Assembly (NCBI GenBank): GCA_046563655.1
Contig: CM102289.1
Location: forward strand, 9,548,001 to 9,612,000
Reading direction: 5' to 3'
DNA: 64,000 nucleotides
From: Yuukianura sp. NJ FZ-2021
Lineage: Eukaryota
Under the pieces are notes generated by a model. That model was not told where the DNA came from and searched no databases. It saw nothing but the letters and a program-made list of their open reading frames with translations. The translations under genes and the position numbers were made by a program. This document shows positions 5,973 through 64,000 of the stretch, one piece after another (positions within the stretch are counted from its first letter, which is position 1; each line of letters begins with the position of its first letter).

Positions 5973-6802
5973 CTTGACCTACACACAAAAACAACGCATA
6001 AGAATATGGAATCTTATGGAGTGGCGAATCGAACAATACGAAAAAAAAGGAACCTTATAAGCAGATGCTGCTTGATCTTGTCACGCAGAGGGCCAATTCC
6101 AAAAGAACTTGAGATCGTCAATTAAAGTGGTGTGGTGATCCGCCGTGCTGGTGTGTGATAAGAACTTCCTTGGGAATCAGATGGGTGTCCATTTGAAGAT
6201 AACTATAGCTTTCTCCTAATTTGCATAGTCAAAAAAGTTTAATTTACCAGAGGCGCCGTACCAGCAGCGGGGAACTGACGCAAATGCAGAAATGGGCAAA
6301 TAAAATTAATTAAATTAAACAAAACTGAGTTTCAATTAATTTAGCAAATGAAATTAATTAAAATGAAATAAAATTGATTAAAATAAAATAAAATTGAATT
6401 ATCTGAATAAAATTGAATAAAGTAAAAGAAAATTGAATTATTTGAATGAAATTGAATGTGCTTAATTTTAGTAAGAACAGATTTAATCGGATTAAACTAA
6501 ATCAAAGTGAAATATGAATTTGGAATTACGTTGACTTTCGAGTAAAATTAAATAAAGACTATAACTCAAATTAAGAACTATTGAGATTTGAATTGTATTA
6601 AAATAAGAAACTCCAGAAAACCATATGTGACTAGATTTGTATAGGATGATAAAATTAATAAATTGTATATTAGTATAATTCAAGTTGTTATGAGTGAATG
6701 AAGTTGGTGTTATTTAATTTTAATAAAAGTGGCATTAACTCAGACATGAATAATATAAACTAAAGGAAATAAATTCTTATGAATAATTCATAAGAATTTA
6801 TT

Positions 6803-11773: not shown

Positions 11774-11807
11774 AAGATAAGCGATAAACTATGGCACTAA
11801 ATTCCAG

Positions 11808-12239
11808 GTTGTGGAGAGAAGCAAAACGTTCCGAGCGGGGAGCCGGGACAGTCGAATCCGAACTTATTTTTATGGACGGATCGGTGGGCAAGTTCTGCAT
11901 CCACATTCGTTCCAAGTGAAACTTTCCGAAGTAATCTACAAAATCGGAAGTCCAGCTGTTCCATCATCTTGTCTCCCACTGGGCATGAAAGTGGACGAAT
12001 CCCGAACAAAGTTAGTCCCAGTAACACCGACGACTCAGCAGTTGCTGCATAAACTGCTCGCAATAAGTTTCGCTTCTGCTGCTGACGAAGACGTAATCCG
12101 GAAGAATGTTGCTGGTTACGTCTGTGTGACGGACATTGACGTGGAAAAGGGACGCATGACTGTTCTATCGCCGTCACCCGGACCACTCCCCAAGTTACTT
12201 CTTCTCCTTTCGGACATTCAGTTTATGGATTCCCAATAA
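11808..12239 (+). pseudogene. CLP1: Orphan 3' exon of CLP1 (polyribonucleotide 5'-OH kinase); no 5' exons in window
   Basis: ttccag|VVERSKTFRAGSRDSRIRTYFYG...IYKIGSPAVPSSCLPLGM...NVAGYVCVTDIDVEKGRMTVLSPSPGPLPK...DIQFMDSQ*; directly preceded by the satellite array. Confidence 0.8.
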
Positions 12240-12905
12240 CTATTTCTGTTTTTACATTAAGAATCAGAATAAGAATTTCGTCAACGTTGTCATTTTAGAC
12301 TGTCCAAGTGACAACACGCTGATCACTAATTAATTAACTTAAATTAAATTTAATAATCATTCACCTTAAGTAATTTAAAAAATACTTTCGATGCCCATAT
12401 GCGATTTTGCATTGCTTCGGCTGTATGGTATCACGTAAACTGAAAACAGGGTGAAAGTCCATAGTTAACTATGGGAGAAAGCTATAGATATCTCCAAGTT
12501 ATTATGGGTGGGAATCAGCTGCTTCTTATCTTGGACGCATTGGATTGGCTTAGGCTTTAGGTTGTAAGTGCACACTTAAGCATTAGCGAATCAGTCAAAA
12601 CTCAAAAGTACTTAAAACGGGAGATGAATAGGAAGACAGAATTAGAAACCATTGCTTAGCTAAAGAACTGTTCTGACCAACCATACACACATTAAGGTTG
12701 GGCTGATTTTAATCTTAATTTCTTCACTGCGAATCACATTACGTTATTGTAGCTTTGGAGTTTTGAAAAGAAGGCGAGGCCGACACTGATAACCTCCGCA
12801 GTGGAATTGAATCTTTTAATTTACTGTGTGTTTTTTAATCTCAAGGTTCATTTGGACGCAGGACAATCGTCAAGTTATACAAATTATCCGTGACTACACG
12901 ATTAT

Positions 12906-14164
12906 ATGCTTGGTGTTGGCGGATTCCTTTTGAAACGGTGTACCGGTGTGGAAGCATTTTCCTTCCTGCAAAGTCAACGTAAGTAATTGGCGTCAATTTC
13001 ATACTTTAGTAGATTGCTTAAGCATTTAAACGTTTTTCTTGTGCCATTCCAGGGAACCTGACGTTACTCGGGAGGAGTGGAAGAGGAATTTCAGCAGCAA
13101 CCGTCTCTTTATTCAGTACCGGAGGAATCACAGGTCAAATGAATTTGGAATCAGCAAAGAAATTAGCAGCATTCCGCGCTGTTGATGACCATATCCTTGT
13201 TAGTTTCTAGAAAACAATGCTATTAATTAGTAACTGTCATCTTTTAGTTTTGCTATTTTCATTTCAGAACAACCAGGTCGTGGGAATCGGAAGCGGAAGT
13301 ACCGTCGTGTATGCTGTGGAGAGAATAGGTAAGCTATTTAGCTTTTAACTTGAACTGATTTAGTATGCAAGGTCATAATTTTTCTGATCTTCTTTCTTAG
13401 CTCAGCGCGTGAAGGCTGAAGGTTTGAAGTTGATTTGCATTCCGACATCGTTTCAAGCCAAAAATCTAATCATTGACAATGGACTAGTCTACTCTGATCT
13501 GGATGTTCACCCGCAGGTTCTTGTTACCTAATTTTTAAGATTTAAGTTTCAACCTTCGTTTCTAACACTGAAGAATTGAGTAAGAATTTTTAAACCAGAT
13601 CGACGTGACAATTGATGGGTGTGACGAGTGTGATGAGAAATTGAACCTGATTAAAGGCGGAGGTGGATGTCAACTTCAGGAGAAAATTGTAGCCTCTGCT
13701 TCCAAGAAGCTGATCATCATCGCTGATCACACGTAATGATTGCGATTAAAGCAAGTTGAGAGAAAATGTGACCACTTCTTGCACTGTTTTGATTTTGCAG
13801 AAAGAAATCTACTTACCTTGGGCAGACTTGGACAAAAGGCGTACCACTGGAAGTATCAATGATTGGATGGAAGGTTGTTCTTAAAAAGCTGGAAGAGCTT
13901 GGAAAAGAACTAAACGTCCGCACGGAACCGCAGATCCGCCATGCAGCTAAGAAAATGGGACCAGTGGTTACTGATGGCGGGAACTTCATCGTGGATTTCC
14001 ATATTGGAAATGTCTTTGAGTCACAAAATGTACATTCACCCAAATCCCTTGACGCAGCACTCCGAGACATCCCGGGGATACTTGAGACTGGACTGTTCAT
14101 TGGAATGGCGGAACAGGTTTACTTTGGACATGACGACGGAACAGTCTCCACTAGACTTAAGTAA
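12906..14164 (+). CDS. RPIA: Ribose-5-phosphate isomerase A, multi-exon; in-frame upstream ATG 12906, core ATG 13139
   Basis: Motifs [72 protein letters not shown]. Confidence 0.95.
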
Positions 14165-14341
14165 AGGCTGGGCTTACAGAGCATGACTTAGTAGCACTTA
14201 GGACAGTAATGATGTTTATCTGATGTTAAAGCATTTTATACAGCTTTTAGTTAAATATGACATTGACATTGACATTACCGTATTTACAGAATTTAGCAAC
14301 TATGTTAGCACGAGAAATTTAGTCGGACGGTATTGACTGCT

Positions 14342-14806
14342 TTAAGATTCAGGATTTTGGATAACAATCATGGCGTAGTCCTTGTCTGCAAGCAAAAAAA
14401 TACTTAAAACTTGTTCCTACTTTTCAGTAATCGTTTCTGTGAGTGCTAAATTGTACCTGGAGCTACCAATACTTCGTGTTTCTTTGTTCTGAGCCGAATA
14501 AATGAGAGATCATTGGTGTTGTCCATCTCCTTGATCATAGCACGAGCCTTTTCAATGATCAACTGCATCTCACAGGCATACTGAATGCTGACATTGTTCT
14601 CAATGGTGGACTTGATTGGAATACCATCTGAGTTGATAATTACTACACCAACTACGCCCTTATGATTTGATAGCCGTTTGATATACTCGTCAATTTCGTT
14701 TGCCTAAATCAAAATAGGTAGATAGAACAAGAAATTTCAGAATTCATTTCAAAATTTTGGTTCTGGTAATTTTTTCACATTGATTTTAGATTCTATGACT
14801 CACCAT
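14342..14806 (-). CDS. DYNLRB: Dynein light chain roadblock-type, 3 exons
   Basis: ATG|gtgag; ANEIDEYIKRLSNHKGVVGVVIINSDGIPIKSTIE...DNTNDLSFIRLRTKKHEVLVAP|DKDYAMIVIQNPES*; absent from the ORF track. Confidence 0.92.
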
Positions 14807-15222: not shown

Positions 15223-18200
15223 TTACTTTTGTAATTTATCCCCTTCTTTAGCAATTTTGATTTCATGATGAACAGAATCCTTAGTAGATGCTGCAGTACG
15301 TTCTGAAAACGTTTCAGAATTGCCAAAGTGAAAAATGTCAGCAGATTGTGTACCGTCTGGTCGACCTTGTTCAACAGTTTTGTAAAATTCAGTTGACTTT
15401 GGCCTATCTACTCCAGATTCTGCTGTGGTTGACTCCAAATGTTTCGAGTAGTGACCGAATTCAAATGCCTCTGATTTTTCCCGGTCATAACTTTTCCAAG
15501 ACCGTTCTTCACGAAAAGTCTCTTTGTTATAAAATTTTCCAACCTGAGGTGAATCGGTACGAGCGCGAATGAATTGAATCGGCGTGGTGGTGACAGAAAC
15601 GTATTTGGTAGGTGATACGGATCGTCGTACTTGCAGTTCTTCGTCATGCTCAACTGGACTTTCTATTGGACGAAGATAGAACTTGCATTCTTCCGTTTTA
15701 GTCATAGTTGTCGTCAGTTGTTTGTGTTTTTGAAGTGTATCGGATATCGGTTCGGCCACTTTGAAATTCATTTGGTCTGTCGTGATTTTTTCAGGTTCGG
15801 CCGTCTTCCGAATCGGTTTTGGAGGCGGAACCGGTTTCTGGGCAATCGGTTTTGCAATTGGTTTAGGTGGTGGCACGGGTTTCTGAAAACGGAAATTCAA
15901 AATTTCATAAAATTTCAAAATCGCTTTTTAAATTTCAAAATACTGAACCTCTAAGTTTGTCGACTTTGGTCGTGGTTCGTCCCAAGTTTTGGCGGTAAAA
16001 GTGGTCGGGCGGAATTCATACGCCGACATTGGACGGTTTTGTCTCGAACTTGGTGGAATCCAAATCGGTTCGATTTTGAACGACTCATAATCTGATTCAT
16101 AGTCGGATTCAGTAAATTTGGCGGGAACAAATTTCGTTGGACGCCGGATTCCCGCTGCATTGTTTGAATTTGAAGCAGCACTTTCTGGACGTGAATCTAA
16201 AAATGCTGGGCATACTGGAGATATTACTGGAGAGTCCACGCCATGACAGGAAACATGCTCAGAGTAGTTCGTCTGGAAATTTCTACTGACTGAATCGTAT
16301 TTTGAAGTTTCACGAACCGAACTGATTCGATACGCCGGTCCGGCTGGAGAAACCGGAGTGTCGTCAGGGTTACCTTCAAAAAGTTGACGAAAATGACCAA
16401 CCTTCCCTCTGGCGGGAAATTCCACTTGGATTGGCACAGTTCTTGGTGAGTGCGGCTGAATTTGAGTTTCCCGCTCTTCTTTTGTCTCAGTTTCAAACAT
16501 TTTCCGGTAGTCCTTGACTTTTTTCCGGGGAAATGTTTCATAACTTCGGTTTTTGGCACTAATTTCATTTGTTTCCTCGGGAAAATCAACTCTAGTTGTC
16601 ACTGTTTCTTCGAAGTTGTCAAAAAATCGTTTCGTTGTGGTCACAACGGATTTCGGACTTTTGAGTTCGGCCGGAATTCGGTTTGAACTGTCTTCAGTTG
16701 GTTTGACCTTGACTTCTCTCCATTCATTGGATAAACGGCGTCGAGGAGGAGGAGCTTGTTTTTGATTGGTCGGAGTAGCACTCTCTATGTTGATTTGACT
16801 GTTTAACGCGTTCACCAACTCCAATACAGATGGACGTCTGTCTTCAGATACTTTATCCTGAAAAAAAATTGTAAATTTTTAGAAATTTTTGAAAAGTAAT
16901 AAATTTTTAGAAGTTTTTGAAATTCTAAAGTTAGTTTAAATTGGACCAACATTCTGAAATTTGTTGTCTGGTTCTTGCACATTCGACTGAGTCGAAAAGT
17001 TGCGTAGAAGTTGCGGTGATGCTTCGTGCGTTTGCGTGATGCTGTCAAATTGCAATTTCGGTTCCTGGTTCGTTCCTGTCGTTTCGTAAGTCGTTTCAGA
17101 CTCTTTGCAAGTTAAAATTCGTTTTTTGGAAATGAGTTCCGGTGATTCAGATTTAACAGAAGTTTGAGTTTCAGAAGTCAAAAGTAATTTCGCAGGGCTT
17201 TCTGGTCTCAAGTTTCCAAGGTCACCGGCAGCATTGACCTCCGAAGTTTTGGGCATGTCACTTTGAACAGATTTCTCCGAAACTTCAACTTCATGTTCAG
17301 GAAGTGTTGGCGTCTGCGTTTGAATTGTGGAGAGTAGTTTTGCAGGTTGTTGCATCACTAGAACAATTGGTTCTGGAGATTTTTCAGTCAGCGTCTGTGT
17401 TTCAGAGTTGGCAATGATCTTGGCATCTCTCTCGGACGTTTGTGTTTGCATTGTGGACTGCTCAAAGATTGTTTGCACTTCGTGGTCTGAAACGGCCGAA
17501 AAATAATCAGCGATTGGTTCAGCGAAAGCGAAATTATTCGGGTTTTGAGAAACAGAATGTTCACGTCGCTGATTTTCTTGAGTCGGCGCATTGCCGTTGG
17601 GCGGCAAAAGTACTTCTTGCCTAATTACTTCTGTAATTGTTGTTGATTCTATCAAAAAAAAATCACAAATTATTGAATTACAAATTACATAATTGCAATA
17701 TGAATTACATACGAATTGTTTATACTATGATATGTTATATTATTAGTATATTATATATTATATTTTAATATTTATATATTTATATAGCAATATTACGGAA
17801 AATGTTGCGTTCCAACTCCATAATTTCGCGAATGTACAGAATCCGATCCGGTTTTTGAATTAATTCATAAAATTGGAGGCATTGCAGAATTTTGTTTTTC
17901 TTTTCGTACATTTTCTCGATGAGTTCCAGCGGCGGATTATCCATTTCCTGTAATAAGTAAAAAAAAATTTTTTTTTTGAATTTCAAAAATTTTTTGATTT
18001 TTTAGCTTTTTTCATATTCATACTTCTACTATTGCTTCAAATTTTTGAAAATCCCGCAAATCACTTCGAGCGGTATCCAGGTTTTCCGGAAGCGGGAAAT
18101 CCAAAGTTTTGAATAAATGTTCCAAATGCTCCTCTCTCAATTTTTGAGCTTCCAGTGCTTCCCTTTCCGCTGCTTTTCGTTTTTCTTCAGCGTCAAATCG

Positions 18201-21200
18201 CTGTTGAGCTTCAAGGTCAAGTTGGATTTGAATTTCACGGTGACGCTGCAGTTCCAGCGCCTGCCTTCGCTGTTCTTCCAGCGCTTGTTGCTTTTGCTCT
18301 TCTGTTTTTCGCTGATTTTCTAACTCAGTTTGACGTTGCTTTTCAACTTCAATCTTTTGACGTTCAAAATCAAGTGCTTTTTGACGTTCAAAATCAAGTT
18401 GTTCCAGCTCATGTCGCTTCTGCTCCAGCTCCAGCTCCAATTGCTGTTCAAGCACTTTGTTTTGACGTTCACGATCTAAGTTAGCTTGACGAAGTTGACG
18501 TAGACGTTCGTTCTCTACGTCAATTTCAAGTTGACGCAAAAGCTCAGCCTCACGAAGACGTTGACGTTCGAGGTCTTCCAATTGCCGTTTTTGCTCAGCT
18601 TCGGCCCTTTGACGCTCCAATTCTTCCAATTGACGTTGCCGTTCATCGTTGATTCGTCGCTGATTCTCTTCAAGTTGACGCATGCGCTCTTCTTCTGCGG
18701 CTTTTTGCCTTGCTACTTCTTCCAATTGACGTAGCCGCTCCTGTTCAACTTTTTGACGTTCTAGTTCAAGTTCATGACGTATTCGCTCCGCTTCGGCTTT
18801 TTGTTTCTGCAGGGCGTCAAGTTGACGTTGACGGTCGGCCTCTAATTGCCGCTCGTGCGTTTCCAGTTGACGTTGTCGCTCGTCATCTTCTTTTTGTCGC
18901 TGAAGTTCTAGGAGTTTGCGCTGTTGCGTCAATTCTTGCTTTTGACGTTGAAGTTCCTCTTGGATAAGTTGACGTTGTGCTTCTTCCAGTACAAGTTGTT
19001 GCTGAAGTTGCTGCTCGAGCTGCTGTTGGTGAAATTCGGCTTCGGCTCGTCGCTGCTCAAGTTCCATTTCGGCTTGACGTCGTTTTTCCTCTATTTCGGA
19101 TTGTTGACGTCTTAGTTCCTCTTCGGCTTGTTGACGGTTTTGCTCAATTTCGGCCTGTTGACGCCTCAACTGGTCTTCAGCTTGTTGAAGTATCAGCTGA
19201 GCTTGGGCTTGTTGACGCATCAATTCTGCTTCGGCTTGTTGACGTATTCGTTCTGCTTCGGCTTGTTGACGTTCAAGATCAGCTTGTTGACGTCTAAGTT
19301 CAGCCTCTTGACGTAAACGATCTGCTTCAGCTTCTTGACGTAAACGTTCTGCTTCATCTTGTTGACGTTTAACTTCTGCTTCAGTTTGGAGACGTAACTG
19401 TTCAGCTTCAGCTTGTTGACGTCTCACTTCTGCCTCAACTTGTTGACGTATTTGTTCTGCTTCAGCTTGTTGACGTCTAAATTCCTCTTCACTCCGCAAT
19501 TCTTCCAGCTTTTCCTGTTTTTCGTTTTCCGCGTTGATTTGTTCTTCCAAACGAGTTTGAGGAGGGCCGCTGTGCAATCCATACGATTCTTCAACCAGAA
19601 TTTGTTCCTCAAGTTCATTCAAATTTTCAGTTTCCCGCTCTTGTAATTGAACTTCCAATTTGGCAGGTTCATTGCCCTCGTTCAGGTCACTGTCTCTTGC
19701 TGTTTGACGCAAACGAAGCAACTTGTTGTGAGCTTCTCTCGTGTCCAATGTAGGGTCCTACAAAATCAAAACATAAATATAAGTCTGGTATTACTTAATA
19801 AAAAGTAATAAAAATGACCGATAATTATTAGATGCTAATTAATGGGTTACTTTTAAGATTTAAAAAAAGCACGATTTTGGTCTGAAACCCTCTAAAATGT
19901 TGTTAATTCTTCATTTATAAAAAATTTTGTTTTTGTCCAACACCACCAAACCTTCCAATTTTCTACAGAAGGACTTTTGGAAAAAGTCAGGATTAGGCTA
20001 ACAAATTCACTACAGTGCATTTTCCTTTTTTATGGAAATTTAAAAAATTCCAAAATATTGTTTTTCTGAAACACCATCACACCTTCTAACTTTCTACAGA
20101 AGGACTTTTGGATAAAGTCAGGATTAGGCTAACAAATTCACTACAGTGCATTTTCCTTTTTTATGGAAATTTAAAAAATTCCAAAATATTGTTTTTCTGA
20201 AACACCATCACACCTTCTAACTTTCTACAGAAGGACTTTTGGAAAAAGTCAGGATTAGGCTAACAAATTCACTAAAGTGTATTTTCCTTTTATATGAAAA
20301 TTTAAAAAATTCCAAGATATTGTTTTTCTGAAACACCATCACACCTTCTAACCTTCTACAGGAGGACTTTTAGAAAAAGTCAGCATGTCGAAAAAAATTG
20401 CTAAAGAAAACTTGTGAAGGATGGAGGGGCCAGAGCGAAGGCCCAATACGGACGCTTAGTATGCTGTTAATTCCAACAAAGTAAACATCAAGAACAAAAA
20501 TGTGAGTACCCAATTGCAGATAGTTTCGATGTGGCCCTCACTGAACGCAGTTGGATTTTCCACCATGGCGTCAAATTTCTTTTGAATTTCGTATCTCGTT
20601 GCGACAGTTTCCCTTAAAGGATTCGGAACTTCAGCACGGCAGCAAAGATCTGAAGAAAGCACAGCAGCATAGGAATTTTCAAATCCAGGAGCATCCAGGA
20701 CGTTGTTGGCGCTCAAAAATTTTGCAACGGCTTCAGCTCGATTCAAAAGTTCACTAAAATGTTGACATTTTGCACTCAGAGTGGCTCTTTTTGGAAGTTC
20801 TTCATCTTTGTCAAAGTTTTGCAAAACGTCTTCAATGTTCTTAATCTTTTCTTTCAGAATCTACCCAAAAAACGAAAATTAGAAAAACGCTTTTGTTTCC
20901 AAATTTTGTATTTCACTAACCAAAATTTCTGATTCTTTTGCTGCAGACGATCCCAGACTCGTGTATCGGACTTCCACATCTTTCATTTCATCCTCAAAAT
21001 ACTCAAACAGCGATTTCAGTGAACCGGTTTTTGCAGCGCGAATTTGAGCTAGCGCTGAAGCAATGTCCAGACCAGGATCCTGTGTACAAAAAGCAGAAAT
21101 TTTTGAAAAAAATTACTGGAAATGTTGAACTGAGTTCAAAGTTTTTGTTTTCTTGCCAAATTGAGTAATTTTTCAATGGCTTCGTCTTCATAATCGAACG

Positions 21201-54143: not shown

Positions 54144-57100
54144 CTAGTTTTGGATTTGGGAATTTCCGGGCATTTCTGGATTATCTTTAGGTGAATCTTG
54201 TGGTGAACCGTCGTTTTCGATACCTTTGTCAGAAAGTTCGTTCAGCACTTGCATAGCTGCCTATAAAACAAAAGAAAACAAAGTTTTAAAAAATGCTGGC
54301 AGTAGTACTTAAAACAGCATCCAAAAACTGTAAAATGAACCAGTCCTTACATTATTTCTGGCGTCTTCCAACGTTGGCCCAGTTCCATGTGAAACATGCG
54401 GTGGTGACGTTCCAAGGCTGACGACGCACAAGTACTCATTTTTCTTAAATCAAACACAAAAGTGTACATTATTTAGTATCATCTCAGTAATTATTACTGA
54501 GTCAATTTAATTATTAAATTGACTAACAAAGTTTACTAATTAATTGATGATCAATTAATGATTAACGATTACTTACCTTTGGGAAGTCCGAATAGGAAAC
54601 TTGGACTCCAAGCAACTGTGCCAAGTATGACAACTTGCTAACAGCTTCTTGAACTGTCGGTAACGATGAACCTGCTGCACAAAAACTTCCAGTACTAGTA
54701 CTGTCCTCCATTTTTGGTGCAACCGGAAGTTCTTTCGGGAGTTCCGACTTGATATCGCTTAAATCCTGATTTTTAATAACAAGTATCCCTGGCACACTCG
54801 TGCGACAACTTGAAACTGCTTTGTGAGCATGAGGAACAGACTTGCTACTGGATGACTGGGATTCAGAGGGAGTAACTACTGCGTTGCCATGGTTACAGTT
54901 CGGTTGCTTAGATTCCTTAGGTTCAGATGGTGGATAGCCGAGGAGTGCCAGAGCATTGTCTGCTGCAGCCTTCTTGGCTGCCTTCTTATTCGGACCTTCG
55001 CCTGTTGCTATAAATGGGCCGACTTTTACCTAATTAAAAGTCAAAAGTCAATATGTATTGAGTATAAGTTATCGATATGTCCAAGGTCATGTCAATTAAT
55101 TGAAACTAATTGATTGATCTACAATCTACACAGTCGATTACCTCGATAACAAAATGTGGCTTGTTGAGCCTAGGATTTCGCCTGTTCTGTCGTAATTGAA
55201 CTTTGGCTTGACCTTGACTTTCGGCTTGACCTTGACCTTCATCTGTTGCAGTTGACGATGTCATGACTGAGAATTCGGGTTCTTTATACTTCCGTAAATG
55301 GGCGATCTGAATGAGACGTGAAATGGGAGACACTGATGCTTTTTCCATATCCTTAAAATTTAAAATCCTTGCATTTCTTTAAAAAAATCTCAACAATTTT
55401 TGTAAATGTTGTAATTTGTACCTTTACCACTGGAGCTACTGCCTTTCGTTTGATAGTTTTGTGGATGAGTAAATTACGTTGCAACATTTTCAGAGAAGAA
55501 TCCCCTGGAACAGGAACTTCCTTCAGTTTTGTAATCATCGCCTCACTCGCAAGTTTTTTAGCTTGCTATAACACAAAACCAACATCATCAATCATCCTGC
55601 GTCAATTTACATTAAAGTAATTAGTTAATCGATTAATCTACAAGTGCTAACCTGCTTAGTAAATCCATCACTTTCTGTCGTCAAGTCCTCTCCCACTTTA
55701 CATTGAACCGTGAAAACTTTCATGTGGGCTGGCCCAACTTCCTTGATCGTTTCATAGCCAATGGGCATGTTCCGTTTTAAAGCCATTTCGTAAACAACTG
55801 AAATGGGACTCTTGTTTTCATCGTCTTCTTCCGTTTCATTGTAAACGGGGACTCCATTTTGAACTTTTTCTTTCTTCATGACCTTAGTAAGTGCCTTGAG
55901 AGCAATCATACACCCCAAGTTCTTGGCAGCATTAAAAGTGTTCCCTTCGCCAGAAAAAATTCTGTCTCCAATGTGCACTGCTACGCGAGTGACTGGAGTG
56001 ACTTTGCGGAATGGATTGATTGTTGTCACGGGATGGTTGACAAAGTGAAGCGGTTGGTTCATCTCTTCAGCCAGAGCTGAAAGTTGTAGTATGGGCCAGT
56101 TTGGACTCTTTCCTTGTCCTAAACAAAGATTTAACACAAATAAACGTTAGATGGACGTCTTACAGGTCACAACTAATTGATTTCATACCGTGCCAGGATT
56201 GAACGTTACGTCTCGGCTGATTGCTCCTTTGCGGTGGTCTGGTTAACGTTGACTTTTCTAGTGCGACGGTAGCAGCTGCTATCTGCGCTTTCTGTACAAT
56301 AATTAACATCAATTTATGACGATATTCCCAATTTGCAGTTTTGTGTTAATTACTTAACTAATTAATTAGCCGTACCTTGATACTGGAGCCAACACCTTCA
56401 TGGTCCTCCCCTCCCAGATGAAGAAGGACAGTAAAAGTGGGGCAGTGCGGCGGTCCTGTTTCGTTGATCAATCGATATACTGGATTGAGTCCATGAAATC
56501 TTGCAATCTCTGAGACAAGGCTAACAGGAGTCTTTGAATTCTGATTGCCCAAAGTTCGGCTGTGACTCGCATGATTATGCGTTTTAACTTCCGATGGAGT
56601 AGTTGTAGCTGAAGTGACGACAGTACCTTCTGTACCACCTAAAAAACAAAGCCAACGTTAATTAAATGATCAATTGATGATTAATTTAAGTACTAACCTG
56701 AAGATAAGTTCTCTTGTTCCAGTTCAAAGTGTGTTATAGATTGTTCGATGGCAGAGTTGGTTGCTTCACCACTGGATCCAGTATTGTTGTCATCTGTTCC
56801 TAGTCCAGACCCGGATTGCGGAGGAAAAGAATCACCGCGTTTGAATATTCGATATTGTGGGTGCGGTTCTGGAGAAGAATCACAATCACTAGCATGATCA
56901 GTGATTAAAGAACTTTTTTCCAGCGATGTAGCAAGAGAACTGATTTCTCCTCGATTACTCTGCTGGGCCTTCCGTCCTTTCGAATTAGACTTAGACCCAA
57001 ACCCACCTCCAGAACTAATGTATGGGTGTGTGAATGCCTGAGTACTAGTTGACGATGACGGTTTAGAGTAGACTCCGTAACTGTGATTATGGTTGAACCC

Positions 57101-57388
57101 ACCACCACTCCGATTTCGACTGGGAGATAGCAGAGCACTTGGTCCGGAACTGCCTGGATTCCTATTAGATCTCAAGGGAAAGTTGAATTGGTTTCCGGAA
57201 GAACTGAAGATCGGTGGAACATTGGGGCTGAATGCTGAATTGAGATTCGTGCTGTTCCCGAACAATGAAGGGCCATTAGTCAGCTGACCATTTGGAGTAT
57301 ACCGGAATCCTCCTACCGATGAAGTAGTATGACGCTGCTGGTTGTACAGACGACTGCCTCCGCTGCCAGCTGATTGGTACATGTCCAT
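54144..57388 (-). CDS. stau: Staufen dsRNA-binding protein, multi-exon
   Basis: dsRBDs KTPVSLVSEIARF...GPPHCPTFTV, KSPISVVYEMALKR...GPAHMKVF, SPISRLIQIAHLRKYKEPEF...GEGPNKKAAKKAAA; dsRBD5 KLSYLAQLLGVQVSYSDFPK...HVSHGTGPT. Confidence 0.92.
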
Positions 57389-57463
57389 AGTTCAACGTTT
57401 TCGTCCCAGGTCACTGATCAAGGTCAGCCAACCGATAATCCAGTAATCGCTTGATCGCTTCAC

Positions 57464-57630
57464 GGTTGGAGAGTGGATCCGCAGTCTGTTTTTCTTTTAG
57501 AGCGAGTTAGGTTATCAAAACAAGACACAGTGCACGGTGTTGAAGGTGAGTGTCCCGTGCACTGTGTCCTGATTTGATAACCTAACTTAAGAACTAAAAG
57601 AAAAACAGACTGCGGATCTACTCTCCAACC
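57464..57630. mobile_element. 167-bp hairpin MITE (GG...CC termini, 8-bp TSD)
   Basis: ~73-bp near-perfect inverted arms around a short loop; TSD CGCTTCAC at 57456-57463 and 57631-57638. Confidence 0.9.
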
Positions 57631-58118
57631 CGCTTCACGCCTGAAACACATAGATCACGTTAATAATACCATAACTTTAACTGAACACAACAATATTAAT
57701 ACTACTGCGGAACTGCTGTAAATAAACCGTAATCAACTGTACATCAATGTACGTAAACCTTACACAAACCGTACATAAACTGTATACACATACTTCTCAT
57801 TGCTAAACGTAAAGGTCACAGGTCGGCTGGTGACACTTACCAAGTGGAGAGGTGGATGAACGTTTCGTCAATGCTTATCTTGCCGGGTTGTCATAAACAA
57901 CTTAGCTTTTGCTATAAATCTGTCACCCGAATTCCTTAACCTAAAGTAAATCGAAAAGTTATGTTAACAAATCTCCATTTTTGTGTTATTTTGTTTACAA
58001 ATATCCTCTTTTACCTTCTCTTCGTATGCGGAGATGCGAATGTGAATGTACGGAAGCGTAAAAGGGCCAACTCGCTTCCCGATTACCTCCTCCATAAGCA
58101 ATACATTGGAGTTGAACT

Positions 58119-58500
58119 GCGCGGTTCCCAGTACTCGGTTCCCGGTTCCCAGTACTCGGTGCGCGGTTCCCAGTACCCGGTGCGCGGTTCCCAGTACTCG
58201 ATTCCCAGTTCCCAGTACTCGATTCCCGGTTCCCAGTACCCGGTGCGCGGTTCCCAGTACTCGATTCCCGGTTCCCAGTACCCGGTGCGCAGTTCCCAGT
58301 ACCCGGTGCGCGGTTCCCAGTACTCGATTCCCAGTTCCCAGTACTCGATTCCCGGTTCCCAGTACTCACTGCGCGGTTCCCAGTACCCGGTGCGCGGTTC
58401 CCAGTACTCGGTACCCGCTTCCCAGTACTCAGTGCGCGGTTCCCAGTTGTCGCTGCGCGGTTCCCAGTTGTGCTGCGCGGTTCCCAGTTCTCGCTTCCCA
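58119..58500 (+). repeat. 21-bp minisatellite (GCGCGGTTCCCAGTACTCGGT-type), left arm
   Basis: About 18 tandem units visible. Confidence 0.95.
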
Positions 58501-58904
58501 GTTGATCAGCTGATTTTGAAATTTTAAGATCAATTATTTACCAAATCAATAAACATACAGCAAATTTGAGAATAACAGTTATACATATATTTAATACGGA
58601 AGTTTCGGTATCATCGACTAATCGTCGACTAATAGTGCAACCAAGAAATAACCCCATGTCTCTCCTGCTATTTCTTTTCAATCTATCATTTTGTTTTCCG
58701 TAGTCTAGTATTTTTGTATACCTTTTATTTTTAAATCCCACCATTTGTATTTCAGGTTAGGACATTTTTGTATTTAGTTTAATTCTTTGATAACACTTTA
58801 GATTTTCACTAGCTGAATATAACTACCACCCTAGACATAATTTACTTTTCTTTAGTTAAAAGACTCCATGTTTACTTTCAACGCTTAATTGCGCGGCCTA
58901 TACA

Positions 58905-59632
58905 ATGCGGGTAGTTGCCCTAATTAGTGGAGGGAAAGACAGCTGCTTTAATATGATGCAGTGTGTCGCAGCGGGACATGAAATTGTCGCTTTGGCCAAT
59001 CTACAACCCCGGGACAAGGGTAACAAAGCATATTAATATTTAAAATACTTCAATTACAACGAGTATCTAATTTTGGTTCTCCGATTGATTTGTAGATGAA
59101 CTTGACAGCTACCTACTACTTGGTATCAGACAGTGGGACACGATGGCATTTCACTTTATGCGGAAGCGATGGGTTTACCACTATTTCGAAGATACATCGA
59201 AGGGAATGCGCTAATTCAACAGAAGCAATACTCCCCAGTCGACGGAGACGAAGTCGAGGATCTGTATCTGCTTCTCCAGGAAGTCAAGGTAAGTTCTCAC
59301 AAAAATCTTTTTTCATTGACTTCATCTGGCATTCAATCTTTTGTTTTACCATTGATTAGGATTCCATTGACTTCGATGGCGTATCGGTTGGTGCTATTTT
59401 ATCCGATTACCAGAGAATCCGCGTCGAAAATGTGTAAGTAAAGCCAAGCTAAAGCGTTGTATTTGTTTAATCGATGATAAATGCAGCTGTATCAAACTAA
59501 TGCTCGAAAAATCAAATCTGTTTTTTTCATTTTAGTTGTTCCAGACTTGGTTGCGTGAGTTTGGCCTATCTTTGGAGAAGGAATCAAACGGAACTACTCC
59601 AGGAAATGATTGATTGTGACATACAACTCTAG
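58905..59632 (+). pseudogene. DPH6: Diphthine-ammonia ligase 5' fragment, frameshifted and truncated
   Basis: MRVVALISGGKDSCFNMMQCVAAGHEIVALANL, DELDSY[11 nt at 59113-23]YQTVGH, GDEVEDLY, GAILSDYQRIRVENV|CSRLG...YLWRRNQTELLQEMIDCDI; ends at a MITE. Confidence 0.9.
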
Positions 59633-60048
59633 GATTTATTCTGCTGGAGTCTTTAGGATGTTATTTTTTGAAAAAGTGCAAAATAAATAACCAATCTCCC
59701 TTGGTTTCCAAAATTTAAAAAAACGTTGAAATGACACTGGAATTGCGCACATGTATCCATCTCCGCCGTAACTCTTAAGTTTAATTATCTAAAGAAAAAA
59801 TTATAACTGTGAAAATTCTGAATTTGTAAACGTGATGTTTAACGGAAAGCTAAACGTTGAACTTGGTTCTTGGAACGACCAATAATTAAGGGCTCAATAA
59901 GTCTGGCGGAGGTGGTTACACATGCGCAATTCCAGTGTCATTTCAACGTTTTTTTAAATTTTGGAAACCAAGGGAGATTGGTTATTTATTTTGCACTTTT
60001 TCAAAAAATAACATCCTAAAGACTCCAGCAGAATAAATCCTAGAGTAG
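59624..60048. mobile_element. 425-bp MITE with ~140-bp near-perfect TIRs
   Basis: 59626-59767 is the near-exact reverse complement of 59905-60046; TA on both flanks. Confidence 0.88.
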
Positions 60049-60062
60049 TAAGCGCAACGTAT

Positions 60063-60411
60063 ATCCTTCTGGAACGTATATCCAGTACGATGCCAAGGCA
60101 ATTGGCTCTGGAAGTGAGGGAGCTCAACAGACTATAGTTGACATGTATAACAAGGTACGACACTTTAAATCCACACAAATTTCTATTAGATACTGACAAG
60201 ACCTTAAATGGCTCAACTTTATTCCATCTTTTAGTCGATGACTCTAAAGGAGGCTATCAAGATAGCTCTAACAATTTTGAAGCAAGTGATGGAGGAGAAA
60301 CTGAATTCGACCAACGTAGAAGTTGCCTGTGTCACACCTACAACTGACTTTCACTTGTTTACGAAAGCAGAAGTGGAGGCAGCCATTCTGGAAGGAGATT
60401 TATCTGGTTAA
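60063..60411 (+). pseudogene. PSMA5: Proteasome subunit alpha-5 3' fragment, one intron retained
   Basis: [61 protein letters not shown]...[13 protein letters not shown]; 5' part absent. Confidence 0.9.
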
Positions 60412-60743
60412 GGGCATTGTGGCTAGCACTTTACTTACTATTTCCACTATTCAATTCAATTAATTTACGAAGTTTCCATCCAAGTACATACACCACATTA
60501 TTCTTTCTTCTCAAAATATTGGCAAAACATCAGGGAAAAACCTATTGTCTTTGTACAATGGGAGGCGGAAGGTGAGAAAATAAACTCTTCTTATAATTAA
60601 CCAAACTAAACTAATTAATTATTACTTTATGATTAATCATTCTGATCCACTGATATCGTAATCATCCATTATTCAAGTTTTGGATAAAAAGATGTTCTAC
60701 GAGCAGCATTAGTGAATACTTTTGTCTTGTTACTTTTGTCATA

Positions 60744-60992
60744 ATGAATTTGGGTAAAACAGTGTCTCTGGTGAGTAGAACGTTACCTTTAATTTTGATT
60801 AAGTTTGATAACATTTCTAATTAATTTCATATTAAATCTTTGCAGTTTATGCTGCTGCTGTTCAGCATCACGCTGTTGTCAATCAGTTTCGAAACTGGGG
60901 AAGCCTTTGGAAAAAAATTCAAGCACAAAATTATGAAGAAACTACTGAAAAAGAAGGGCTTCGGGTCAGCATCGCTTGGGCTTAAAGGCTAA
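60744..60992 (+). CDS. 57-aa secreted cationic peptide precursor, antimicrobial-peptide-like (exons 60744-60770, 60846-60992)
   Basis: MNLGKTVSL|FMLLLFSITLLSISFETGEA-FGKKFKHKIMKKLLKKKGFGSASLGLKG*; canonical gtgagt...tgcag intron. Confidence 0.75.
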
Positions 60993-61226
60993 CTCAGGAA
61001 AAAGTTTTTGGAGCAGAATTAGTAGTTTCATTTTACTTCATATTTTTAGCATTTGAAATTTTAAGGTAACTTTGATTCTACAAACTAAAAAATTAGAAGA
61101 AAAAGTTTAGTTTTTGTATAATTTAATACCCTAAGGCAACTTATATTCTGAACCTCTATTGGTAGTTTATAGAAATAGTGAGGTAGTGATCTTGTGACCA
61201 TCGCAAGGTCAAAGGTCAATGATTTT

Positions 61227-61534
61227 TTACCAAACGGTACATCGTTTTTCTGGTCCTGGATTCATGACAGTACCAACGGCACAGTTCCTTTTTTTTTTGG
61301 TCAATCCCTGTGTCGTGATTTTTTCACACCACATCTAAAACGAAACAAGAACAAATCAGCGTTCAGCGTTTGAGTATGTGCTGGATTTTATTTTAAATTG
61401 TTAAACTTACATTTGCGTAACCAATGAAGAAGAGTTGTTCTGGCGAATACTGTGCCAGTCCGGGAAGGCGTTTCTCTGGACCATTGTTGTTTACGTAGCG
61501 ACGGTAAGCCAGAAGTGACTCTCTGATTGAGGCT
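61227..61534 (-). pseudogene. Neprilysin (M13 peptidase) C-terminal fragment with internal deletion
   Basis: AYRRYV...EKRLPGLAQYSPEQLFFIGYAN|MWCEK then, across an A-run and frame change, NCAVGTVMNPGPEKRCTVW*. Confidence 0.8.
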
Positions 61535-61775
61535 CTAGTAGAAAAAACAGACATGAGGGCAATCATTTCGTACTTAGTGTGACCTTGACCTTACCACTCC
61601 AAGATGACCTTCGAGGTCACCGTAACTATCAGTGGTCGGCGCAGGTCGGCAATGGTCGATCTAACAATTATCATTTCGCTAATTCAATAAAAATTTAAAT
61701 AAATTCAATAAAATGGCTTCCTAAATAAATATCTAACTGTTGTTTTCAAATTTGTTGTATGTTTATTGATTTGGT

Positions 61776-62032
61776 GGAACTCCTTCGGGAAACTCGCGAA
61801 GTTCGTTTAATTGAGATAAAAATCTCAATTAACTCAGTTTTTTACGCTGATTACGAATCTGTAATTAGTTTTGGCCGCTCACTACCCTAACTTAACCTAA
61901 CCTAACTTTAACTAAAATGTGCCCCCATGTATGAGATAGGGAGAAGTGTGATGCCCAGAGCTGTTGCTCTGAGTGAAGGTGCAATTCCCTATCTCTCCCA
62001 TAGAACCTTCGCGAGTTTGCCGAAGATAAGCC
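61776..62032. mobile_element. 257-bp MITE nested in the right arm
   Basis: TSD GATTTGGT at 61768-75 and 62033-40; imperfect TIR GGAACTCCTTCGGGAAACTCGCGAAG / CTTCGCGAGTTTGCCGAAGATAAGCC; the left arm shows the empty site (single ACCAAATC). Confidence 0.9.
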
Positions 62033-62075
62033 GATTTGGTAATGTGATTTTAAAATTTCAAAATCAGCTGATCAA

Positions 62076-62460
62076 CTGGGAAGCGAGAACTGGGAACCGC
62101 GCACTGAGTACTGGGAACTGGGAACCGCGCACTGAGAACTGGGAACCGCGCAGCGAGAACTGGGAACCGCGCAGCACAACTGGGAACCGCGCAGCGACAA
62201 CTGGGAACCGCGCACTGAGTACTGGGAAGCGGGTACCGAGTACTGGGAACCGCGCAACGAGAACTGGGAACTGGGAACCGAGTACTGGGAACCGCGCACT
62301 GAGTACTGAGAAGCGGGAAGCGAGTACTGGAAAACGCGCACCGAGTACTGGGAACCGGGAATCGAGTACTGGGAACCGCGCACCGAGTACTGGGAACCGC
62401 GCACCGGGTACTGGGAACCGCGCACCGAGTACTGGGAACCGCGCACTGGGCATCGAGTAC
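62076..62460 (-). repeat. 21-bp minisatellite, right arm (inverted counterpart of 58119-58500)
   Basis: Tandem ACTGGGAACCGCGCACCGAGT-type units. Confidence 0.95.
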
Positions 62461-63023
62461 CGAGCAGTGGTAAGTGATTTGGCCCTTTTACGCTTCCGTA
62501 TGAATGTGATGCACCCAAAATCTTTGCACTTGTTTCTGGCTCAACTCGAGTCCGGCTCGTTCACACCGTAGTCATTCGCTAATTCAGAAATTCAGGCTAC
62601 GACTATAGCAGACAATACACCGATACGAAACAATAAAAACTTCACATAAAAATCAGACATGCGATGCGAAAGTTAGTCTTGGAAATGGGCAAATGGAAAC
62701 AACACTTTTGATCGGTTGCATTTACATTTTTAATGCATTTATAACTTTGTTTCATAAACAGTAAAACAAAAAGTAAAAATTAGTTACATTGCTTTCAATT
62801 AACTACGTTTAAGTCTCACCTAACACTAATTCCCTACTAAGTAGAAAACAAATCGTTTTGACGTAATACAGTAAAAGTAGCCTCTGACGGACGGACAAAC
62901 AGAAAACATCCACGATGTAATTACCTGTATGCAGGGTATCAGTGGCAAATAAACATAAACATAAACATAGTTAAATTCATAAAGTAGGTTTCTGTTACTA
63001 AAAAAAGTTAGGAAACACTCAAG

Positions 63024-64000
63024 TTAAAGTTTGAGTCTGCAGTTTTCATGAAGTAGAGGAATAATGAACAGTTTTGTTGACCACTTGGTCCCGATGCTGC
63101 CGACTACGATTTCAGCGTCGTTTACATCGAACACAAAGTCTGCCAGATCTTCCTGCGGAATCTTAATCCTCGGAAACCCTTGAGGCACAATTTCCAGTAT
63201 CTTTGTCCACGTCTGACTGTCAAAGAAGTGAAACGTAAAGTTTGGTGGGTCGGATCTCACTTCCATAATGACAAGGGCGTCCACTTGACCTCCGGAACCA
63301 GTAACAATCCGAACATCATCTTCATCCAGTAAATATTCTGTATATTTGATTCGGTTGCGTTCACGAGCTGACCTCCTTATGGCTGTCTCTGATTTGGGAC
63401 AAACCGAAAGATTCTCTCCATACTTCATGTAAAATTCTTGGACCAACTCAGGTACAGGTTCAGTTGGCGCGTCAGAGTGAAGGCCGTTTTTGATCCGTCG
63501 AACCCTGGCGACACTATTACCAGTAAAGTTCAACAGTTAAAGATAAGTAAAAGTTTGAAAGTTTTTATGCATTGAGCGGAGAGATTGATTGCTCGAGTGA
63601 CTTACCAGACTTCATTTTTGGAGCAAAATATAACTCGACTGGGAGCAGCATTCATGAAAGCAACATTGCCACCAGTCTCCTCAGTCAAAACCGCTGTATC
63701 CTGTAGATACTTTAGTATATCCGGTTGATCTTCCCCCACTGCTATGCGTTTATTCAGGTTGTATAGGTCAAAAACCTGCAGAATTTCAGTGTTTAGAGTT
63801 GAGCAATTTGGATTTCATGAAAAAGTCATTTGTCAAGAGCAGCTTACTGATCCTTGTGCGATGAAGTACGGAAGTGGAGGATACAAGGACACTCCCAGCA
63901 CGAGATCAGATCCAGTTCCAGTGTTTTTAACTGGAATTCCTCCTTCTAGAGAATGAACAATGTGAGATACAGCTACTCCTTCAGTGCCATGGCCATTTTG
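63024..64000 (-). CDS. 3' exons of a gene running off the window; possibly DCAF17-like
   Basis: Spliced frame ...FIAQGS|VFDLYNL...NVAFMNAAPSRVIFCSKNEVW|...RRSARERNRIKY...FHFFDSQTWTKILEI; resemblance to the DCAF17 C-terminus is weak and from recall. Confidence 0.5.

Follow-up and report, generated by a model that had tools for sequence, protein, structure and literature searches.

A polymorphic, probably Pack-type TIR element with pieces of host genes upstream of staufen in a probable springtail genome

When long inverted repeats enclose pieces of unrelated host genes, did the whole arrive in a single transposition event, or were its parts brought together on the spot? The question is raised by positions 58049-62500 of the 64,000-nt stretch of DNA analyzed here (hereafter, the window), which lie upstream of staufen, ~660 bp from its putative start codon, in the genome of what is probably a springtail. 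We find that these positions form a single unit of 4,452 bp. With a probability of about 0.78, it is one non-autonomous class II cut-and-paste element of the Pack type, with foldback-like long terminal inverted repeats (TIRs), and came to this site already loaded. A preliminary description had proposed a DNA-level gene-capturing foldback-type element, and the empty allele, the arms, and the retained introns support this proposal.

The element is bounded by perfect 22-nt inverted repeats of the form 5'-TA...TA-3' (TACGG... at one end and ...CCGTA at the other). In the 64-kb window this terminus has exactly two sites, 58049-58070 on the plus strand and 62479-62500 on the minus strand, with 0 mismatches each, and 0 are expected by chance (100 shuffles). 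The termini are abutted on their outer side by the two copies of the target-site duplication, TGAATG, both read directly, at 58043-58048 on the left and at 62501-62506 on the right. Since the copies share a seventh letter, T, the duplication is of 6 or 7 bp: TGAATGT, the 7 letters at the empty-allele joint from 58042 to 62501, fits either flank, and the 7-bp reading makes the termini unequal by one base.

Each arm is ~550 bp long. The left one (58049-58603, plus strand) consists of the terminus, a 21-nt minisatellite (18.0 copies at 58118-58493, with 85% matches), and an inner, low-copy part (58494-58603) that ends with the homology between the arms, at ~58603. The right one (61712-62500, minus strand) is split by a nested MITE into 61712-61775 and 62033-62500, and holds its own 21-nt array (62084-62446, 17.0 copies, 81% matches). 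All 26 window matches to the 21-nt unit, at up to 3 mismatches, fall in the two arms. The arms are ~85% identical over the arrays, agree at 29 of 32 positions at the outer ends and at 48 of 54 at the inner ends, and differ mostly within the slippage-prone arrays. Even with up to 3 mismatches, the window has no more than two sites for the terminus, one at each outer end, so the inner arm ends lack an inverted terminus. The inverted ~550-bp arms with 21-bp minisatellites noticed in the preliminary description are borne out by the arm alignment and the repeat arrays, and the 6-bp direct repeat that was said to bound their homology lies directly outside the perfect termini.

We compared the window with public contigs from four runs, three of sample S1 (X1-X3) and one from an independent study (X4). 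Such contigs drop rare variants, and their summed depth is not a copy number. In 2 of the 4 runs, X1 and X3, both of sample S1, contigs run from 58042 straight into 62501 and keep one TGAATG(T). They skip 4,458 letters, i.e., the 4,452 of the element plus 6, with 7 letters common at the joint. The depth of this empty allele is 155.6 in X1, where the short side counts 82 letters, and 76.1 in X3. Record 7 of X1 is unbroken across the joint, its letters 1-82 being the left flank and its letters 83-483 corresponding to 62501-62903. Between the empty and the filled allele, the flanks diverge by ~1% or less (1 of 403 letters in X1 record 7, 4 of 403 in record 1). Haplotype diversity in S1 is high, up to ~7% in X2 record 13. 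The filled right junction is found in X2 record 12, which covers 62441-62757 with 0 differences; none of the listed contigs crosses the whole element. The insertion is polymorphic: other sequenced chromosomes do not have it, the empty allele being known from one sample. An empty allele with a single TGAATG was the very check suggested beforehand, and it removes the earlier caveat that the arms could be two independent inverted copies, as does the lack of a terminus at the inner arm ends.

The arms belong to a much deeper class of sequence than their surroundings: in X1, the summed contig depth of the arm bins is 4,510-14,416 (4,510-8,553 in those covering 58006-58507) versus 154-186 in the flanks, i.e., 24-93 times more, which is a ratio of depths and not of copies. 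Loose ends at 62428 in X1 and X4 join the outer 73 nt of the arm to different, mutually similar sequence. No other full copy of the element was seen in the public contigs, and the depth of the interior is close to that of single-copy DNA, which suggests that the loaded element is probably single-copy.

The interior (58604-61711) is 3,108 bp long, of which a nested MITE takes up 425 bp. It starts with a short stretch (58604-58630) between the end of the arm alignment, near 58603, and the start of the homology with the contigs of a DPH6 parent (X1 record 4 aligns only from 58631). Then, on the plus strand (58631-59623), comes the 5' portion of a captured diphthamide-synthase (DPH6-type) gene: ~270 bp of DNA upstream of the start codon, which is at 58905, and four exons separated by three GT..AG introns, the fourth exon being cut. 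Three exons match the Pfam profile Diphthami_syn_2 (positions 1-37, 83-106, and 99-133 of 219). In this piece and in the two other gene pieces described below, Pfam was run on single exons, where each match alone is below the curated cut-off and the profile positions are in the correct order; each intron inspected has GT at, or at most 2 bases from, the given donor coordinate and AG at the end. An 8-bp insertion near 59112-59122 causes a frameshift. It is missing in all of the X1-X3 depth, and in X4 a depth of 3.4 out of 10.8 lacks it and 7.4 has the form of the window.

The DPH6-type piece has a separate locus. Contigs match the window from 58631 or 58787 to 59623 and then diverge, departing from it at both ends; the match ends at 59623 in X2 record 10 (38,431 nt) and in the shorter X3 record 18 and X4 record 26. 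The frameshifting 8 bp of the window are absent from these parent-type contigs. Over 837 letters, X2 record 10 differs from the window by 31 other letters and 19 gap letters; for X1 the figures are 4 other letters in 404 (record 4) and 1 in 277, with 8 gap letters (record 5). In X1 record 4 a further 60 letters, beyond the start of the alignment at 58631, are unmatched. The public contigs thus contain a parent with at least 90% identity elsewhere, the level used to recognize parents of Pack-TIRs.

The second block of cargo begins with the 3' end of a captured proteasome alpha-5 gene, in which the final two exons, the intron between them, and the stop codon are present (60065-60411, plus strand; Pfam Proteasome profile 123-153 and 157-188 of 189). 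Protein homology begins at PSGT, at ~60065; the two exons together correspond to residues 159-239 of a 243-aa alpha-5, and the last one to residues 188-238 of the 241 of human alpha-5. The contigs contain a second copy of this block that is 5-11% diverged (27-41 other letters and 13-18 gap letters in ~530), and over 60481-60770 the two versions are found together in X4, with 3 other letters in 290 for record 28, and 41 other plus 18 gap letters in 526 for record 27. Next comes an orphan two-exon ORF of 57 aa (60744-60992, plus strand), open, with a GT..AG intron and a hydrophobic N-terminus followed by a Lys-rich tail, for which a search detected no homologue. On the minus strand, translation and Pfam (Peptidase_M13 profile, 114-149 of 205) identify the 3' part of an M13 (neprilysin-type) peptidase gene (61227-61530), which retains two exons with the intron between them and the stop codon. 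Presuming the C-terminal motif that we expect in such peptidases, the central portion of its C-terminal region is missing. The proteasome, ORF, and peptidase pieces may come from one contiguous source segment instead of separate captures. Between the peptidase piece and the right arm, the stretch at 61531-61711 has no match elsewhere in the window and no Pfam match.

No transposase domain was found by Pfam in nine interior stretches, which gave host-gene families or nothing, and 25 further interior ORFs matched no family; the window ORFs scanned contain no integrase-related DDE transposase domain. The cargo is therefore much as first described from the letters. Intron-bearing pieces of DPH6, PSMA5, and neprilysin genes are recovered by Pfam with their GT..AG introns, and the reported lack of a transposase agrees with the scans of the interior ORFs. 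What had been called an intact peptide gene survives as an open 57-aa ORF with no detectable homologue. As for the intact parents that were to be sought, there are DPH6-type contigs and, for the proteasome block, the second, 5-11% diverged copy.

Of the two MITEs initially placed in the cargo, one is indeed there and the other lies within the right arm. The former (59624-60048) has 146-nt inverted arms, 97% complementary, with TA at 59622-59623 and 60049-60050, and its bin depth of 1,783 in X1 indicates that it is repeated. It sits exactly on the DPH6/proteasome junction, a position that could point to the MITE, rather than the outer element, as the driver of the join. A junction filler follows (60051-60064), the 3' part of which is within an 11-nt direct repeat (at 60056 and 60073); it looks like a templated insertion at the alpha-5 junction. 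The MITE of the right arm (61776-62032, 257 bp) has an 8-bp duplication, GATTTGGT, and in X3 and X4 a MITE-free joint from 61767 to 62033 skips 265 letters, with 8 in common.

Could the cargo have been assembled at the site itself? A cargo-less foldback element would then have inserted upstream of staufen, and later breaks would have been repaired with DPH6 and alpha-5/peptidase DNA that never moved afterwards. We regard such gap filling as unlikely, even if it is the usual origin of single-copy animal Pack-TIRs, mostly without transposition, in the account of Tan et al. (2021, PMC8277862), and even if the loaded element seems single-copy by depth and has filler with a templated repeat at one junction. 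S1 also has the filled right junction (X2 record 12), but the S1 contigs compared have no window-type cargo: they show only other versions of the DPH6 and alpha-5 regions, with, for example, all of the depth at 58750, 58892, 60375, and 60378 on the other letter. In S1, the occupied allele may thus have an interior unlike that of the window, or no interior at all, and this would favor capture in place. However, the 58 kb on the left side of the element contain no parent, whereas gap filling is strongly biased toward sources at less than 15 kb (PMC8277862), and a cargo-less allele was not directly seen in the contigs. The alpha-5 block is also 5-11% diverged from its other copy versus ~1% or less for the flanks, which suggests a cargo older than the insertion, although this argument is weakened by the haplotype diversity of S1 (~7%).

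The two remaining alternatives are far less probable. That two independent solo elements came to lie, inverted, around a resident, decayed duplicate of host genes would be in line with the differences between the arms, but these are concentrated in arrays prone to slippage, and the same 6-bp repeat is present at both outer ends. A composite of two complete solo elements is contradicted by the empty allele, from which the arms are absent along with the interior and in which one TGAATG is left, and by arms that are not each bounded by their own pair of inverted termini; we hold this history very improbable. An assembly artefact that fused repeats with unrelated gene pieces into a chimera is the least credible of all. 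Inverted repeats and MITEs are indeed difficult to assemble, and no listed contig spans the whole stretch, but the duplication and the empty site agree to the base, X2 has the junction of the right arm with its flank without differences, and X4, from an independent study, shows the 8-bp insertion specific to the window (in 7.4 of a depth of 10.8) as well as a contig of the window type that covers 60481-60770.

If a single loaded element was inserted, as we favor, a transposase encoded elsewhere would recognize the 22-nt TA...TA termini and probably also the ~18 subterminal 21-nt repeats. The TGAATG duplication and the precise empty allele show that the target was cut with a 6-nt stagger and received the whole 4,452-bp unit. 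The introns point to an interior made of host DNA that was copied as DNA from two or more loci, presumably that of the DPH6-type 5' piece and that of a block made of the alpha-5 3' end, the small ORF, and the tail-to-tail 3' end of the M13 peptidase gene. The 11-nt templated repeat filler at the alpha-5 junction and the breakpoints inside exons argue for cargo most likely gained through double-strand-break repair with template switching, probably before the loaded element reached its present site. The two MITEs would have inserted after the cargo, which seems to be decaying, given the frameshift in the DPH6 piece and the internal loss in the peptidase piece.

How does the element compare with known systems? 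Plant Pack-MULEs also carry gene fragments captured at the DNA level, often chimeric, between TIRs. They differ in host kingdom and in the duplication, which is of 6 (or 7) bp here; MULE duplications are typically of 9-10 bp. Several of the features of Pack-TIRs given by Tan et al. (PMC8277862) are found here: two inverted TIRs of one element with the termini outward, an interior whose 3,108 bp are within 100-5,000 bp, and introns kept. To set Pack-TIRs apart from segmental duplications, that paper also asks for a parent locus without flanking TEs within 100 bp. In the part of that survey on insects, there are none in reference genomes, and the only case is Ssk-FB4, in populations of Drosophila melanogaster. 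Like our element, Ssk-FB4 is a non-autonomous TIR element with an intron-bearing interior of host DNA and repeat-built foldback-type arms (~700 bp versus ~550 bp here), shows presence/absence polymorphism in populations, and has de novo filler at a breakpoint (PMC8277862). In contrast, the duplication of FB4 (foldback, MULE-like) is of 9-10 bp, and its cargo is one nearly complete gene (PMC8277862), whereas ours is a mosaic in which two or more loci are represented by truncated pieces; a single copy of the loaded element has been seen so far here. Galileo, of the P superfamily in Drosophila, shares long TIRs whose internal tandem repeats, proposed as secondary transposase-binding sites, vary in number from one arm to the other, and abundant two-TIR non-autonomous copies (PMC3573991). 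However, its duplications are of 7 bp, which here requires unequal termini, its transposase is of the THAP type, and host gene capture is not reported in the sections of that paper that describe it (PMC3573991).

The TA..TA ends and the 6-bp duplication make IS3EU/GingerRoot the best lead for the superfamily, as judged from sequence features. In IS3EU families the termini are invariably TA..TA, and the duplications are usually of 6 bp (Kojima 2023, PMC10045372). GingerRoot has the same ends and duplications of 6 bp, or 7 bp in 5 of 77 elements, as our element has 6 bp, possibly 7 (Cerbin et al. 2019, PMC6839031). Intron-bearing gene fragments are found in 22 of these 77, several of them with fragments from two genes, and the transposase is lost, which is also the situation here (PMC6839031). 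Yet the TIRs of GingerRoot measure 100-150 bp versus ~550-bp minisatellite arms here, minisatellites are not mentioned where that paper describes its elements, and its gene capture is described in clubmoss, versus a probable springtail in our case (PMC6839031). A bolder reading would see here the first animal Pack element of IS3EU/GingerRoot, in a springtail family that is currently active, whose foldback-like minisatellite arms promote repeated repair-templated capture and so produce multi-gene mosaics; the copy would also have duplicated a lineage-specific gene for a secreted cationic peptide, still functional, beside the staufen promoter. We consider this combination speculative and improbable.

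Elements of this kind are already known, and the present one adds a young animal case of a gene-capturing transposon. The mechanism by which DNA transposons acquire host genes is still debated, and young, polymorphic, chimeric examples in animals are few. This element unites a precise empty site, parent copies that are ~90-99% identical, breakpoints inside exons, a junction with templated filler, and a MITE exactly at a join. Given the whole genome, it could thus help to tell cargo captured before transposition from cargo captured in situ, and could show if foldback-like arms or IS3EU-type chemistry favor capture. The insertion, 660 bp upstream of staufen, also amounts to a natural case of presence/absence variation.

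The element at 58049-62500 of the window is real: a well-delimited, polymorphic transposon of 4,452 bp that carries gene pieces. Its 22-nt terminus has two exact occurrences in the 64 kb, inverted and with 0 mismatches (58049-58070 and 62479-62500), where none are expected by chance. The termini read TA...TA, and TGAATG stands immediately outside each of them. From the terminus inward, the arm homology extends over ~555 bp on the left, ending at ~58603, and over ~532 bp on the right (62500-62033 and 61775-61712), where the arm is split by a MITE of 257 bp with an 8-bp duplication (GATTTGGT). Each arm contains a 21-nt minisatellite (18.0 and 17.0 copies) in which two unit types alternate irregularly, and all 26 matches to the unit in the window lie inside the arms. 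The terminus search of the 64-kb window found none at the inner arm ends. The candidate inner terminus TACGGAAG at 58596 was rejected, as only 8 letters match and these lie partly inside the arm homology.

We aligned public contigs to 56500-64000, using four of the five runs that cover part of 57400-63100; no RNA run was listed for this stretch. Runs X1, X2 and X3 come from one sample (S1) of "organism A", and X4 from a different study, of "organism B". Contigs of X1 and X3 join 58042 to 62501, skipping 4,458 letters that correspond to the 4,452-bp element and one TGAATG. Seven letters fit either side of this joint, and its depth is 155.6 in X1 (82 letters on the short side) and 76.1 in X3 (54 letters on the short side). 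One X1 contig of 895 nt (record 7) is unbroken across the joint, with its letters 83-483 placed on 62501-62903 with 1 other letter. A 31-mer assembler is unable to jump a 7-nt overlap, so there must be reads from a chromosome without the element. X2 and X4 have no such joint among those listed. For the occupied form, the right junction is seen independently in X2, where record 12 continues from the arm into the flank (62441-62757) with 0 differences. Given the precise empty site, the element is a single insertion unit that is polymorphic. The preliminary description had reported inverted arms of ~550 bp with 21-bp minisatellites up to TGAATG, which we recover with the lengths given here, and had suggested looking for an empty allele with a single TGAATG, which is what the X1 and X3 contigs contain. 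Its caveat that the arms might be two independent inverted copies is removed by the empty site and by inner ends that carry no terminus.

The summed contig depth of the outer-arm bins in X1 is 4,510-14,416, against 154-186 in the flanks, which we take as evidence for a multi-copy family, with summed depth providing no copy number and hence no count. The MITE nested in the right arm reaches 14,662 in the same run, and the bin at 58508-58758, comprising inner arm and filler, only 165. At 62428 there are loose ends in X1 and X4, where the outer 73 nt of the arm run on into different sequence, and the sequence joined there is similar in both organisms. The terminus (as a 19-nt core) and the array (as a 33-nt stretch) were also sought as exact matches in metagenomes, with 0 loci each; the collection is mostly microbial, and these zeros carry little weight.

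The window is gene-dense animal DNA, with Pfam exons for acyl-CoA dehydrogenase, Clp1, ribose-5-phosphate isomerase, GDI, an inward-rectifier channel, sybindin, and UMPH-1. The closest named protein to the Clp1 exon is from the springtail Allacma fusca (68%), and environmental sequences reach 70-72%, which makes the host a hexapod and probably a springtail, with no annotated species close to it. The element sits between the 5' region of staufen (~54.5-57.4 kb, minus strand, Pfam) and the 3' end of a gene of at least three exons at 63027-64000, also on the minus strand, whose part at 63027-63536 has no Pfam family and no usable Atlas match. An Rfam scan of 57000-64000 returned zero matches at the gathering threshold. 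Between the large element and the putative staufen start codon there is a short palindromic MITE-like element (57500-57620); its bin (57504-57754) has a summed contig depth of 7,111 in X1, ~40x the ~170-190 of the flanks. Public contigs have several length variants at 57588-57591, and 57465-57670 is skipped in one contig. The right flank shows length polymorphism around a short ACATAA-type repeat (62866-62974), where 63-105 letters are skipped in 4/4 runs, in one case by the empty-site contig. Elsewhere in the window, the minus strand at 15226-19757 has four long open frames (234, 316, 262, and 579 aa), none with a Pfam family. The 579-aa frame is extremely Glu/Gln/Arg-rich, repetitive, and coiled-coil-like, and at 18-20 kb the AT skew takes strongly negative values.

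The interior contains pieces of three genes, all of which keep GT..AG introns of ~60-100 bp and were therefore copied as DNA. The DPH6-type diphthamide-synthase piece (58631-59623, plus strand) comprises four exons preceded by ~270 bp of upstream sequence, matching the Pfam profile Diphthami_syn_2 at 1-37, 83-106, and 99-133 of 219. The frame of its exon 2 is broken by 8 extra letters near 59112-59122, considering the residues that we take other DPH6 proteins to have there. In its intron 1 (59035-59061), seven closely spaced differences split the X1 depth between a window-type form (~125) and another form (107.8). A MITE flanked by TA follows (59624-60048, 146-nt arms, 97% complementary), and then the last two exons of proteasome alpha-5 (60065-60411, plus strand). 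These align to a 243-aa alpha-5 over residues 159-239, at 80% and 90%, and the piece aligns to human alpha-5 (241 residues) over residues 188-238, with the best database proteins at 88-90%. The M13 peptidase piece (61227-61530, minus strand) has two 3' exons covering 114-149 of the 205 positions of the Pfam profile, and the stretch separating the last two conserved blocks is absent, as judged by a motif that is presumably conserved. A possible inverted repeat around this piece was dropped, as it has only short pairs with 71-92% complementarity. Pfam revealed no transposase domain: nine interior stretches gave only host families or nothing, and 25 further interior ORFs gave no family. Pfam and the introns agree with the preliminary description of intron-containing pieces of DPH6, PSMA5, and neprilysin without a transposase. 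What it called an intact peptide gene is a 57-aa ORF that stays open over two exons (60744-60992, plus strand), begins with hydrophobic residues, and ends in a Lys-rich tail. Since it has no homologue in a word-indexed search, nor in a HMMER search of 1.84 billion representatives (0 hits), we do not call it a gene.

Contigs matching the DPH6 piece depart from the window sequence at both ends of the match. Record 4 of X1 aligns to 58631-59034 with 60 further letters that do not fit, and record 10 of X2 (38,431 nt) aligns to 58787-59623, with 31 other and 19 gap letters, and then continues for ~37.6 kb; the match likewise ends at 59623 in X3 record 18 and X4 record 26. The 8 extra letters are missing from all depth in X1-X3 and from 3.4 of 10.8 in X4, so the form of the window is present in X4. 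These contigs and the depth lacking the 8 letters show that an intact-frame DPH6 locus exists elsewhere. Given the split depth in intron 1, one haplotype of the S1 parent locus would be nearly the same as the captured copy, in which case the DPH6 capture may be very recent. Contigs over the alpha-5 block (60222-60792) have 26-41 other and 13-18 gap letters (records 6, 11, 19, and 27), X4 record 28 is window-type (3 other letters in 290), and 61043-61288 has another version that is ~9% different (records 20 and 29). As the diverged contigs of the alpha-5 block extend into exon 1 of the 57-aa ORF, we infer that alpha-5, this ORF, and the peptidase would derive from one contiguous source segment. 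The 38-kb DPH6 contig has no long piece on the alpha-5 block among the 31 of 1,841 pieces listed, so the DPH6 and alpha-5 sources are probably more than 37 kb apart; pieces of ~520 nt from other contigs do cover the block. In the remaining 58 kb of the window there is no sequence similar to the interior.

The DPH6 homology stops at the TA flanking the MITE (59623), and the alpha-5 homology begins ~15 nt past the other TA. The 3' part of the filler between MITE and alpha-5 lies within an exact 11-nt direct repeat (60056 and 60073), which we read, from what is generally known of such repair, as the probable mark of templated insertion during end joining or template switching. The position of the MITE at this join is possibly explained by breaks at MITE ends repaired with ectopic DNA, by recombination of two MITE copies deleting the intervening DNA, or by coincidence.

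The analysis thus shows a TIR element whose target duplication is 6 bp (possibly 7 bp), which is missing as one unit from other chromosomes and carries host-derived intron-bearing cargo without a transposase domain. A transposase acting in trans would bind the termini, and perhaps also the 21-nt repeats, host DNA would be captured through break repair, and the element would have reached the site upstream of staufen already loaded. We favour this loaded arrival over capture in situ, where the cargo would have been acquired at the present site and not by transposition, because the alpha-5 block differs by 5-11% from its other copy, whereas the flanks of occupied and empty alleles differ by ~1% or less, and because there is no parent nearby on the left. 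The high haplotype diversity of S1, up to ~7% in X2 record 13, weakens the age argument. Capture in situ seems unlikely to us, but three points speak for it and against loaded arrival. The loaded element looks single-copy, and Tan et al. (PMC8277862) found that most Pack-TIRs present once in an animal genome come about independently of transposition. Capture in situ would also fit with S1 having the occupied right junction but no window-type cargo among its aligned contigs, those listed over the cargo being non-window versions only. Contigs drop rare variants, and the loaded element may therefore still be present in S1.

By the definition of Tan et al. (PMC8277862), the element is a Pack-TIR: it has a TIR pair, an interior of suitable size, retained introns, and a parental copy with at least 90% identity. 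The definition further calls for a parent locus with TE-free flanks. It resembles Drosophila Ssk-FB4, as described there, in its repeat-built arms, captured gene, and polymorphism, but does not share its 9-10-bp duplication. The arm structure is like that of Galileo, whose 7-bp duplication (PMC3573991) fits the element only with unequal termini. The best lead for the superfamily is IS3EU/GingerRoot, because the signature stated in PMC10045372 combines TA..TA termini with a 6-bp duplication; assignment would need the defining transposase. GingerRoot elements frequently hold gene fragments with introns, taken from one gene or from two (PMC6839031). A general literature search covering Pack-TIRs, foldback elements, and 6-bp duplications met no springtail report of such elements. 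The kind of element is already known, and this copy is a further member.
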